From a virus (taxonomy: Duplodnaviria; Heunggongvirae; Uroviricota; Caudoviricetes): 18,357 nucleotides of DNA. This document shows positions 2,672-5,600 of the stretch, piece by piece. The stretch lies in IMG/VR virus record IMGVR_UViG_2563366979_000001, positions 1 through 18,357 of that record. One strand, given 5' to 3'. Position numbers and translations under genes: made by a program. The notes under the pieces were generated by a model. That model was not told where the DNA came from, searched no databases, and was given only the letters and a program-made list of their open reading frames with translations. Every line of letters starts with the position of its first letter. Within the stretch, counting starts at the first letter, position 1.

Positions 2672-5600
2672 ATGACCACTGTGAATAAAAAGTTAAAAAA
2701 AACTGCATCTGGCGCGATTACATGGTCGGTAATTGTTACCCAGATATTATCTCCAGTTTCTCTTTCTTTGATCCCGGCAAACAGTTTTGCATCATCTGAT
2801 AATAAAGATGTTACGCAAACTTATGCCAGTGATGAGCGGGCAAATAAAGTTGCCTCATTTGCAGCAAGTGCAGGTCAGAGTCTGGCGAATAATAATGCAA
2901 GTAGTTTTGCTGTAAATACTTTATCAACTCAGGCGACAAAAGAGATCGTCGACTGGTTGCAACAATATGGCAATGCGCGCATCAAGCTTAATGTCGATGA
3001 CTCTTTTTCCTTGAAGGATTCATCATTCGACTTTTTATATCCATGGCTGGATACTCAGGATTATGTGCTATTCAGTCAGACATCACTACATCGTACTGAT
3101 GACCGAAATCAGACCAATATTGGTTTGGGGATTCGTCATTTCACTCCTGATAACGCAATGTTGGGTGCGAATGTTTTCTATGATTACGATTTAAGTCGCA
3201 GTCACTCTCGTGCAGGTTTTGGGGTTGAGTACTGGAGGGATTATTTCAGGCTTGGTGTAAATACCTATTTTGGTCTATCTGACTGGAAGAACAGTCGGGA
3301 TATTGATGATTATCTGGAAAGACCTGCAAATGGCTGGGATTTTTCTGCTGAAGGATGGCTACCTGCTTATCCGCAATTAGGGGCATCTATTCAGTTTGAA
3401 AAATATTATGGTAAAAACGTCGGGTTATTTGGAAGCGATAACCTGCAGGAAAACCCTTACGCAGTTACTGGGGGAATTTCTTATACACCAGTTCCTCTGA
3501 TTAAGTTTTCTGCACAGCATAAGCAAGGACAGAGCAACGTTCACGATACAACCTTCGGTGTTGAGTTTAATTATCGCCCGGGCGTTTCCCTGGCTGAACA
3601 GCTTAGCAGCGATAATGTTGCAGTTATGCGAGAAGTCCAGAACCGGCGTTATGATTTTGTTGAACGAAATAACAACATTGTTCTGGAGTACAAGAAAAAG
3701 CATGCACTGAAAATCAGTTTGCCAGAGTCTATTCAGGGGGAGGGGGAATCAATCATCCCTGTAACACTGACAGTCAACAATGCCAGTGGTGGTATCAAGT
3801 CTGTACAGTGGAATGATAGTGCATTCACTGCGGCTGGCGGCAAGATCAGTGGAAATGGCACATCATGGCAGATCACTTTACCGGCTTATAAAAGCGAAGG
3901 TGTAAATTCGTGGAGTGTTGGAGCCACAGTACAGGATAACAGAGGCAACGTGTCCAACTATGCCGTGATGAATATTAGCGTTACTGATAGTGGTGTATCG
4001 ACAGCTGATTCGTCTTTTACACTGGATGGAGATTCGTCGCCGACGATCTCTGCTGATAGCCAATCTACTTATCCGATAGTATTAAGCCTGAAAGACAGTA
4101 ACGGTAAGGCATTAACCGGACTGGCTGATGACATTGAAATGTCAGTGGAATTTACAGCAGATAGCAATAGTGCTCGACAGCGTGAAACGGTAACTGCCCC
4201 GTCATTAGGCGCGGTAGAGGAAATCTCTGCTGGGGTATATCGCTCTGTTCTGACTGCTGGTTCGCAGGCTGGTACGGTACGTGTAACCGCAAAAGTTCAG
4301 GGAAAAACCTTTACTCTGAATATTAAGCAGGCAGCCATCACTGATAGTGATGTATCGACAGCTGATTCGTCTTTTACACTGGATGGAGATTCGTCGCCGA
4401 CGATCTCTGCTGATAGCCAATCTACTTATCCGGTAGTATTAAGCCTGAAAGATAGTAACGGTAAGGCATTAACCGGACTGGCTGATGACATTGAAATGTC
4501 AGTGGAATTTACAGCAGATAGCAATAGTGCTCGACAGCGTGAAACGGTAACTGCCCCGTCATTAGGCGCGGTAGAGGAAATCTCTGCTGGGGTATATCGC
4601 TCTGTTCTGACTGCTGGTTCGCAGGCTGGTACGGTACGTGTAACTGCAAAAGTTCAGGGAAAAACCTTTACTCTCAGTATTAAGCAAACAGCAGCAACAG
4701 AACCTGAATCTGAGGTCAGTGCTGTTTTAACCGCTGCACCAGCAGAGCAGGTAGTTGGTTACAATATTAATCTACAACTGGCAGTGAAGGATTCACAAGG
4801 AAATGCAATCACAGGTGATAATACTCTGAGCTTTTATGCCATTAACCAGGCTGAAGGAGTCGAGTTTGGGACTGTAACGGAAAAAGATGGTGTCTATAGC
4901 GCAACAGTAACTTCAAAACGAGCAGATAAGATTCGGATCGGTGTTAAATCGGATCGTCACGATTTCTCCGACCTTGAGAAAGAAATCTCCTTTATGGAAG
5001 ACCGAATTCAGTTCGCGTTCTCTCGTATTGAAGCCAGTAAAAATAATGCATTGGCTGATGGAAAACAACAGAATACAGTGACTGTAAGTCTTGCTGATCG
5101 TTTCGGCAATGTTGTTCCTGGTTATGCTGTTACGTTGTCCTTACCTGCGGGGATAACTCAAGTTGGTGGTGAACATGCAGTGTCAACTGACGAAAATGGT
5201 AATGCTGTTTTTGCGTTAATAAGCTCCACTCCAGGTTCTTACGTGATTAAAGCTCATGCTGGGCCTCAGGTATCTACTGAGTTAACTGTGACCTTTGCAT
5301 CAAATATGAGCGGAGCTTCACTGTCACTGACGCCTGAAAACAGTAGCTTAATTTCGAATATCCCTGCTAATGGTAAAGATGCTGCGGTATTGAATGTTCA
5401 GCTAACAAATAATACTAATGCGTCGGTTAATGGACAGAAGGTTCAGCTCATTACCTCATCTGAAGGGTTGTCTGTGCCGACAAATATCGTGACTGATTCA
5501 ACAGGGCATGTTTCTGTACCAGTTACAACGGTGAAAGCTGGTGAGTACACGGTAACTGCACGGGTGACTGATGGTTCTAATAGTGTGGAATCTGGCAGCG

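Follow-up and report, generated by a model that had tools for sequence, protein, structure and literature searches.

The adhesin gene of the window, by which we mean the whole 18,357-nucleotide stretch analysed here, contains two adjacent, near-identical 357-bp units, which very probably represent an old two-unit array of Invasin_D3 stalk domains, kept uniform by intragenic recombination that also shifts its copy number between one and four. As judged from the comparison of alleles, the near-identity of the units reflects concerted evolution of an older duplication and is no measure of its age. The gene and its parts are the following (positions in the window).

2672 to 6583, plus strand: inverse autotransporter (type Ve) adhesin gene, prophage cargo, 1303 aa (ORF; Pfam IAT_beta, Big_1, Invasin_D3)
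2672 to 2791, plus strand: probable signal peptide, aa 1-40, ending ...PANSFA before SS (putative, translation judged by eye)
2843 to 3673, plus strand: outer-membrane beta-barrel translocation domain, aa 58-334 (PF11924, E=8e-101, 337.6 bits against a cut-off of 22.3)
3707 to 3982, plus strand: first, membrane-proximal Ig-like domain, equivalent to intimin D00, aa 346-437 (PDB 6tqd)
3983 to 4339, plus strand: repeat unit 1, aa 438-556, one Invasin_D3-type Ig-like domain plus linker (Tandem Repeats Finder, Pfam 41.6 bits, AlphaFold2/Foldseek)
4340 to 4696, plus strand: repeat unit 2, aa 557-675 (Tandem Repeats Finder, Pfam 41.7 bits)
4697 to 6580, plus strand: six more, strongly diverged Ig-like (Big_1/Invasin_D3) domains, D3-D8 (per-segment Pfam scan)

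By its sequence, the protein is an inverse autotransporter of the intimin/invasin family, in which an IAT_beta barrel is followed by an Ig-like passenger, an architecture that would place it at the cell surface as an attached single chain. The whole-protein Pfam scores are 337.6 bits for IAT_beta, 188.5 bits for Big_1 and 182.9 bits for Invasin_D3. Residues 97-341 match the solved barrels of invasin (PDB 4e1t, E=1e-73) and intimin (4e1s, E=7e-63), and residues 342-442 match intimin D00-D0 (6tqd, E=1e-9). Genes 99.5% identical to this one are labelled 'inverse autotransporter beta domain-containing protein' in RefSeq. The passenger consists of nine domain-sized segments, eight of them with Ig-type Pfam matches, the last weak (E=0.0076), and the two repeat units are domains two and three counted from the outer membrane. 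A Pfam scan of the protein, whole and per segment, found no recognised C-terminal lectin, ligand-binding or LysM module. From about position 4900 on, the gene is 8-22% divergent from the ST131-type allele.

The protein belongs to none of the named equivalogs that we scored, as no NCBIfam equivalog cut-off was reached with the intimin, SinH/IatB, IatC, Ilp, YrIlm, Inv or YchO models; the best scores were 395 bits for the IatC N-terminal model (cut-off 2400), 329 for intimin (1400) and 321 for SinH (999). K-12 YeeJ is 30% identical to the window protein and has no tandem repeat. The gene is not among the four iat genes and fdeC/yeeJ treated by Goh et al. (2019), and a literature search found no paper devoted to it. 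Some sources call its 1184-aa form 'attaching and effacing protein', which is a name only.

Tandem Repeats Finder reports the repeat as a single array (3983-4686, period 357, 2.0 copies, 98% matches, no indels, score 1366), and both units are in frame with the ORF. The two units differ at 12 nt over 357 bp, a DNA identity of 97-98%, and the differences are unevenly placed: columns 1-21 hold one, columns 22-335 hold three, and the other eight crowd into the last 22 nt (core 3/314 versus tail 8/22, Fisher p=1e-8). At the protein level, 5 of 119 residues differ (G4D, I32V, N113S, A117T and I119A). The sequence-only reading gave about five differing positions, which matches the protein exactly and, away from the 3' edge, is roughly correct for the DNA as well. 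In explicit pairwise alignments, the two units share 96% protein identity and the remaining pairs among the nine Ig-like domains share 17-34%, in agreement with the earlier description of the other domains as strongly diverged; on these alignments, the likeness of the two units is beyond what chance could give. Each unit scores above the Pfam gathering score of 33 for Invasin_D3. An AlphaFold2 model of a single unit, built on a shallow alignment of nine paralogous domains, is an eight-strand beta sandwich (pLDDT 82), and its best Foldseek matches in the PDB are Ig-like domains of InvE (5n40), InvD (5ldy) and FdeC (4e9l), with E values of 4e-5 to 2e-4. Profile match and predicted fold agree in making the unit an Invasin_D3/Big_1 Ig-like domain. 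These results, with the barrel matches, bear out the proposed in-frame duplication of a 119-aa Ig-like domain within an adhesin.

The history of the array can be read from the place where its units meet.

4318 to 4360, plus strand: internal junction, the diverged 3' edge of unit 1 plus the head of unit 2 (protein NIKQAAI, then TDSD), from allele comparison

Every multi-copy allele has this junction, in four lineages that are 5-7% apart in their unit cores, and it is missing from single-copy alleles. In all four lineages, 7-8 of the unit's last 22 nt differ between the junction and the outer unit end. When divergent lineages are compared, 13-16 sites in the core (columns 22-335) are lineage-specific in both copies and 0-1 follow copy position, and 11-14 of these concerted sites are synonymous; the pattern is reversed in the last 22 nt, where 6-8 sites go by copy position and none by lineage. 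From the aligned alleles, we take the junction to be a lineage-independent mark of the original duplication. The shared, diverged junction, together with lineage-specific core changes present in both copies, indicates that the duplication is older than the split of the sampled lineages.

The units also carry traces of exchange. Single-copy units consist of a unit-1 head and a last-unit tail, and single-copy alleles, which lack the junction bases, are therefore derived by deletion and not ancestral. The middle units of three- and four-copy alleles consist of a unit-2 head and a unit-1 tail, and the recombinant make-up of both kinds of unit indicates that DNA was exchanged between copies. Among three-copy alleles with flanks differing at 0-1 of 5145 nt, the same variants sit in different copies. 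Between the window and a 99.5% identical relative, 9 of 19 differences lie inside the 714-bp repeat (p=0.0035), and the head of unit 1 in the window has unit-2 bases at columns 15 and 21. Homogenisation is uneven across lineages, as the two copies of one allele (L012) differ at 23 of 357 nt, with 13 of the differing sites in the cores. Few amino-acid changes are found anywhere in the unit across lineages, the unit is under purifying selection, and its boundaries fall on inter-domain linkers.

The sequence-only reading had explained the likeness of the copies by a very recent duplication in the lineage of the window, with too little time for the copies to diverge. The gap between two units of 98% DNA identity and other domain pairs of 17-34% protein identity favours this explanation; however, it is contradicted by a single junction in four distinct lineages that has itself diverged from the outer tail, by lineage-specific synonymous changes in both copies, by the 23 differences in L012 and by the derived state of the single-copy alleles, and we consider it very unlikely. 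An independent duplication in each lineage was rejected on the junction and synonymous-site patterns, and the horizontal spread of a young array on the lineage-specific cores. The likeness could also have been kept by purifying selection on the protein, for example if both domains bind the same partner, with no homogenisation of the DNA. The scarcity of amino-acid changes fits this proposal, but selection on the protein cannot hold synonymous sites equal between copies, and most of the shared core changes are synonymous; with the recombinant units pointing to DNA exchange, this makes it extremely improbable.

Copy-number variation, which had been predicted from the presence of the repeat, was found on counting the units in genome sequences of related strains. 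At one and the same prophage locus, alleles carry 1, 2, 3 or 4 units, with gene lengths of 3552, 3909/3912, 4266 and 4623 bp, in steps of exactly 357. The length of the adhesin changes with them, as had been expected, the proteins having 1184, 1302-3, 1421 and 1540 aa, and none longer than 1540 aa among the best matches listed; the 1540-aa form was found on contigs of 5.13-5.16 Mb. At the DNA level, we compared 12 alleles, and the reading frame is kept in all 12. Three allele pairs differ in copy number with identical flanks, namely two copies versus one (L002 and L004, 0/5145 nt mismatches), three versus four (L003 and L008, 0/5145) and again two versus one (L005 and L006, 0/4445). The array is a copy-number hotspot, and the identical flanks show these changes in copy number to be recent. 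In complete genomes, 1402 unit matches were found for 562 gene copies, a mean of 2.5 units per gene, and 423 genomes carry at least one internal junction. The distribution of copy numbers rests on these summary counts and on a sample of 60 rows, in which three unit places were found in 37, two in 13 and one in 10, and some assemblies termed complete may still miscount the units. Three copies are commonest in the sampled ST131-type alleles, and no copy number was seen to be fixed lineage-wide. The maximum is six unit places per genome; some genomes carry two gene copies, and six places may correspond to 3+3 or 4+2 units.

The warning that such repeats collapse or expand in short-read assemblies proved justified as regards breaks and collapses. 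One orphan contig of 357 bp is the unit itself, cyclically permuted; there are also contigs of 220-390 bp, and partial proteins on tiny contigs that break off at the repeat, at about aa 447-451. The window's two copies could likewise be an artefact, with three or more copies collapsed or a single one falsely expanded, as a draft-assembly scaffold (GCA_000352345.1) matches the window at 100% identity, and a middle unit, being a hybrid of units 1 and 2, is hard to see with short reads. On the other hand, a DNA-identical gene (0/3912 mismatches) is present in four other independent assemblies, and a 3912-bp gene with two units is found in each of the five nearest complete genomes (99.5%). As far as these sequences go, the count of two is corroborated, short of proof for the source isolate; an artefact is improbable, and the repeat exists whichever count is right.

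For the preferred reading, an old array homogenised by recombination, we propose the following sequence of events. One 357-bp unit would have been duplicated before the sampled allele lineages split. Unequal crossing-over, slipped misalignment or gene conversion between the copies would then have kept their cores nearly identical, and the same recombination would gain and lose whole units, giving one to four copies. The enzymatic route may be RecA-dependent sister-strand exchange or RecA-independent slippage, both of which are established in E. coli for tandem repeats of this size. If the invasin crystal structure is a guide, each added unit would extend the rod-like stalk by about 4 nm, roughly the length of one Ig domain, and the distal domains might then project to a different extent through LPS or capsule, an effect that has been proposed for Periscope Proteins. 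Effects of stalk length on function are suggested by analogy, and this holds in particular for projection of a tip, since the C-terminal domains have no recognised ligand-binding module.

For the bacterium, the variation may be real but neutral, arising as a side effect of mutation in a long perfect repeat within a prophage cargo gene that can be dispensed with; we regard this as a tentative possibility. In its favour, some strains carry a broken gene, interrupted by an inserted IS3, truncated by IS1 or frameshifted, the prophage of the window is a deleted remnant, and fixation of one copy number across a lineage was not seen. However, the frame is kept in every allele compared, the units begin and end at inter-domain linkers and are under purifying selection, three copies predominate in the sampled ST131-type alleles, and related proteins have length-dependent phenotypes (PMC8201768). 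At the other extreme, the copy number could be tuned to the thickness of the host's O-antigen or capsule, with rapid gain or loss of units fitting the prophage-delivered adhesin to new lysogens, the prophage's Red genes perhaps speeding the changes and the predominance of three copies being adaptive; we consider this unlikely.

The array resembles several known systems, most closely the Periscope Proteins (Whelan et al. 2021, PMC8201768; review PMC9704523), in which repeat number varies between close strains (PMC8201768) and high DNA identity of the repeats is proposed to drive their gain and loss. Inverse autotransporters and Invasin_D3 repeats are given as Gram-negative examples (PMC9704523), and cluster 53 of Dataset S1 (PMC8201768; UniProt A0A192CME6) is listed as an inverse autotransporter of E. 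coli whose Invasin_D3 repeats, 119 residues long, number 2-3 and share 98% DNA identity. This cluster is probably the window gene, matched by description and not by sequence, although it carries the label 'YeeJ', which does not fit K-12 YeeJ. The window protein has the Periscope features of 119-residue repeats, 96% identical in protein and 97-98% in DNA, with 1-4 copies in close strains. In contrast to the classic examples, which have up to 46 units, the array here is short (1-4) and sits at the membrane-proximal end of a stalk of mostly diverged domains; and where a Periscope rod projects a distal functional domain, we have here a single-unit model and no recognised distal ligand-binding domain.

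Among inverse autotransporters, Yersinia ruckeri YrIlm (Wrobel et al. 2018, cited in PMC6714894 and PMC10174560) has near-identical Ig-like (BIG) repeats of about 300 bp in its passenger, and their number varies from allele to allele and cannot be relied on in short-read assemblies. Protein class, near-identical Ig-like repeats and variable copy number are thus shared with the window gene, which differs in having 1-4 repeats, no LysM or lectin match and a lambdoid prophage location; the window protein scores 305 bits with the NCBIfam YrIlm N-terminal model (cut-off 750). FdeC/EaeH of E. coli (PDB 4e9l) is, like the window protein, an inverse autotransporter with a long Ig-like array and no LysM, and it is the best solved-structure sequence match of the repeat (E=3e-13 for two units) as well as a top fold match; FdeC is encoded by a chromosomal core-type gene (1415 aa), whereas the window gene is prophage-borne. 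In the group B streptococcal alpha C and Rib proteins, according to PMC8201768, identical tandem repeats encode Ig-like stalk domains, repeats are lost quickly by intragenic recombination, and recognition by antibodies is influenced by length. These proteins are Gram-positive and sortase-anchored, carry their functional domain at the N-terminus, have far more repeats and show no homology to the window protein.

Mechanism and protein class are already established, and the case is one of Periscope-type length variation that opens no new question. Its practical value is modest: it is a worked example in which near-identity of tandem domains shows ongoing homogenisation and not the age of a duplication. 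Should stalk length influence how the adhesin is exposed, the number of copies would be worth recording in any work on the protein as a colonisation factor or antigen. The length of the gene should not be trusted in short-read assemblies, and 'mutations' called here by read mapping may be repeat artefacts. The three mutations listed in EC958_1349 (PMC8541385) are a possible case, if this is the same gene; it is plausible that this old tag corresponds to EC958_RS06345.

The adhesin gene is cargo of lambdoid E. coli prophages, in which it lies between replication gene P and the nin region, and the Red genes exo, bet and gam are found a few kb upstream in intact versions. It is present in 559 of 5426 complete E. 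coli genomes (about 10%), including the ST131 reference strain EC958. A megablast search of a phage collection with the gene gave no match, which indicates that no sequenced free phage carries it, and the plasmid collection gave only three matches, to large non-mobilizable E. coli records. The gene was not found outside E. coli in species-representative genomes, a scan that detects close relatives only. Its sole match with the unit, a 357-bp contig in a 'Moraxella osloensis' assembly, was rejected as a collapsed-repeat or contaminant contig. Downstream of the adhesin gene are two further features.

6595 to 6615, no strand assigned: G+C-rich hairpin with T runs on both strands, terminator-like, between the convergent adhesin and hydrolase genes (consensus scan)
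6620 to 7663, minus strand: convergent alpha/beta hydrolase gene of the BD-FAE family (Pfam BD-FAE, E=8e-45)

The hairpin, a pattern match only, has a 9-bp stem with 7 G-C pairs and is reported on both strands. The hydrolase gene is missing in L012 and adjoins the adhesin gene in most prophages (L001-L006 and L008-L011).

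The 357-bp units form a single strong tandem array at 3983-4686 in the window, for which Tandem Repeats Finder gave a period of 357, 2.0 copies, 98% matches, no indels and a score of 1366. The array is in frame with the adhesin ORF (2672-6583, 1303 aa), and the near-identical, in-frame duplication of an Ig-like domain that the sequence-only reading placed at 3983-4696 is correct. Unit 1 (3983-4339) and unit 2 (4340-4696) differ at 5 of 119 amino acids, which is exactly the "about 5 positions" given there, and at 12 nucleotides in the DNA: one in columns 1-21 of the unit (the head), three in columns 22-335 (the core) and eight in the final 22 nt (the tail). 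When the passenger was cut into nine domain-sized segments and these were compared pairwise, the two units were 96% identical and all other pairs 17-34%, as expected from the claim that the other Ig-like domains are strongly diverged. Pfam assigns the following to the protein:

aa 58-334, IAT_beta barrel (337.6 bits)
C-terminal to the barrel, Big_1/Invasin_D3 domains

The barrel matches the solved invasin (E=1e-73) and intimin (E=7e-63) barrel structures. As the leading domain of the passenger matches intimin D00, the repeat units are the second and third Ig-like domains counted from the membrane, and both score over the gathering cut-off of the Invasin_D3 profile. One unit is predicted to form eight strands (pLDDT 82; the input alignment, made of paralogous domains, was shallow), and by structure comparison this model most resembles the Ig-like domains of InvE, InvD and FdeC. 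None of the NCBIfam equivalog models (intimin, SinH, IatC, Ilp, YrIlm, Inv, YchO) reached its cut-off, K-12 YeeJ is only 30% identical, and the gene does not feature among the six inverse autotransporters that Goh et al. 2019 (PMC6714894) list for E. coli. Judged by these profile and structure matches, the adhesin is an inverse autotransporter without an established name.

The divergence between the two window units is uneven, with 3 differences in 314 core positions against 8 in 22 in the tail (p=1e-8). An alignment of all 27 units from 12 alleles separates four allele lineages, with unit cores up to 5-7% apart, and one internal junction is common to every multi-copy allele of all four. Non-last units end in GAGGC(A/G)T(C/T) (protein NIKQAAI/V) and last units in CGAAA(G/A)CA (SIKQTAA/T), while non-first units carry A at column 11 of the head, giving TDSD, not TDSG. 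When two-copy alleles are compared, 6-8 sites of the 22-nt tail track copy position and none tracks lineage. Across divergent lineages, both copies show the lineage's base at 13-16 sites of the core (columns 22-335), and only 0-1 core sites track copy position. Since 11-14 of these 13-16 shared core sites are synonymous, selection on the protein is rejected as the reason for the likeness of the copies. In one two-copy allele, L012, the unit cores still differ at 13 sites. We interpret the array as an older duplication that has been homogenised in its interior but not along the edges, where homology reaches its limit. The "very recent duplication" proposed earlier is contradicted by the junction common to four lineages and by the lineage-specific core changes present in both copies.

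The make-up of the units suggests how they are gained and lost. Single-copy units combine a unit-1 head with a last-unit tail and lack the junction bases, and in alleles with three or four copies the middle units combine a unit-2 head with a unit-1 tail; both are products expected of out-of-register exchange between copies. Reduction to one copy removes the junction and makes homology-driven re-expansion impossible, so single-copy alleles are derived states. Among 3-copy alleles with near-identical flanks (0-1 mismatch per 5145 nt), the same polymorphisms sit in different copies. Relative to its 99.5%-identical relative, the window allele has 9 of 19 differences inside the 714-bp repeat (p=0.0035), and columns 15 and 21 of its unit 1 carry unit-2 bases where the relative has unit-1 bases. 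These patterns indicate that exchange between copies continues on short time scales. RecA-dependent unequal sister exchange and RecA-independent slipped misalignment are both established in E. coli for repeats of this size, and either is a candidate for the enzymatic route.

Gene lengths at the same locus step by exactly 357 bp between copy-number classes: 3552 bp (L004, L006), 3909 or 3912 bp (window, L001, L002, L005, L011, L012), 4266 bp (L003, L009, L010, EC958) and 4623 bp (L008). In public data, proteins of 1184, 1302-1303, 1421 and 1540 aa are all common, the 1540-aa form being found on 5.13-5.16 Mb contigs. The unit has 1402 matching places in 560 genomes (mean 2.5 per gene), with three places in 37, two in 13 and one in 10 records of an evenly spaced sample of 60, and at least one internal junction is present in 423 genomes. 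Three allele pairs, L002/L004 (two copies and one), L003/L008 (three and four) and L005/L006 (two and one), have zero mismatches over 4445-5145 nt of unique flank and unequal copy number, so copy number changes fast compared with point mutation.

The array is also hazardous to assemble. In an assembly labelled "Moraxella osloensis", one contig (CAXORL010000232.1, 357 bp) is an exact cyclic permutation of one ST131-type unit across the junction, with 0 mismatches to that of L003, and is most easily explained as a collapsed repeat from contaminating E. coli DNA. Other adhesin fragments in public data lie on contigs of 220-390 bp and 1341-1347 bp, and partial proteins stop at about aa 447-451. 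Sequence comparison supports two units in the window allele: four further independent assemblies match its gene without mismatch (0/3912), and in five complete genomes that are 99.5% identical the gene is 3912 bp long. There is a small chance that assembly undercounted the units in the source isolate. Taken as a whole, the sequence-only reading was right about the copy-number hotspot, given the length steps and flank-identical pairs, and about the short-read hazard, but not about the age.

As to function, the analogy with invasin and intimin structures predicts that each added Ig-like domain should lengthen the stalk by roughly 4 nm, which would shift the reach of the distal domains. It is possible, if somewhat doubtful, that the copy-number variation is instead functionally neutral. 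This stays a serious alternative because Pfam scans of the whole protein and its segments recognised no distal ligand-binding domain and because some complete genomes have an inactivated gene, with an IS3-family element inserted close to the 3' end (L007), a frameshift (L013) or an IS1 insertion that cuts the gene off within the first repeat unit (L014). A change of reach would fit the Periscope Proteins, surface proteins whose tandem domains are of high identity and vary in number (repeats >50 residues, identity >=80%; PMC8201768), among whose Gram-negative members a review counts inverse autotransporters and Invasin_D3 repeats (PMC9704523). Among inverse autotransporters with near-identical Ig repeats, YrIlm of Y. 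ruckeri has been studied best. We found no tandem repeat in K-12 YeeJ, so the "YeeJ" entry of Periscope cluster 53 (119-residue Invasin_D3 repeats, 2-3 copies, 98% DNA identity), matched by its description, is probably the window gene under an automatic name. The array is an ordinary, already catalogued case of a known mechanism, to which we add the prophage context, the range of 1-4 copies, the flank-identical pairs, and the evidence of concerted evolution that comes from the junction and the synonymous sites.

The window is E. coli DNA, with 9583 nt 100% identical to a GCA_000352345.1 scaffold. The unique 357 bp immediately upstream of the repeat occur 562 times in 559 of 5426 complete E. 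coli genomes, and megablast did not find the gene in the phage sequence collection. It is also present, at one or three places each, in three E. coli "plasmid" records that are large (238-542 kb) and non-mobilizable (NZ_AP026904.1, CP088398.1, CP054248.1); these may be phage-plasmids, chromosomal fragments or misassemblies. In complete genomes, its host element is a lambdoid prophage, in which it is flanked by replication gene P and by the nin region (ybcN-ninE-ybcO-rusA-Q). A gene for an alpha/beta hydrolase (BD-FAE family) is convergent with it there, accompanies it in most prophages and is missing from L012. The window prophage is a deleted remnant that has lost about 6.9 kb (exo, bet, gam, kil, cI, cro, O, P) relative to L001, the 99.5% relative; in its left part (1-2671), the adhesin gene comes directly after an integrase (1-1164, minus strand) and DUF4222/TraR-like genes. 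EC958, the ST131 reference, shares an identical 3-copy allele with strain 4/1-1 (L022 6118-10383, NZ_HG941718.1 1266117-1270382). The EC958 prophage that houses it is a full lambdoid one, adjoins sitABCD and carries iss as well. If EC958_1349 is the same gene, the three mutations reported for it (PMC8541385) may be repeat-related artefacts or true copy-number changes. The gene is mosaic: window and L002 (ST131-type) diverge by 1-2% up to about 4900, then by 8-22% per 150 nt through the stop codon (4900-6583), which indicates that the distal stalk domains of the window adhesin are of another allele class than its barrel and repeats. Downstream features are:

6595-6615, both strands, terminator-like hairpin between the convergent adhesin and hydrolase genes (pattern match)
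6595-7663, region of the hairpin and alpha/beta hydrolase
10134-10658, minus strand, lipocalin
10851-11810, YbgA/2-thiouracil-desulfurase-like protein
12153-12893, AraC-type regulator
17608-18357, second AraC-type gene

Non-phage cargo occupies 10134-12893, between the Q antiterminator and holin genes. The holin gene (12993-13298) directly precedes an N-terminally truncated tail-fibre ORF (13383-15665, plus strand; region 12993-15665), in which the Pfam phage_tail_N match starts at profile position 62. This ORF contains a second, unrelated tandem repeat at 13808-14280, with a period of 189 bp (81-88% matches) and sub-periods of 21 and 42 bp.
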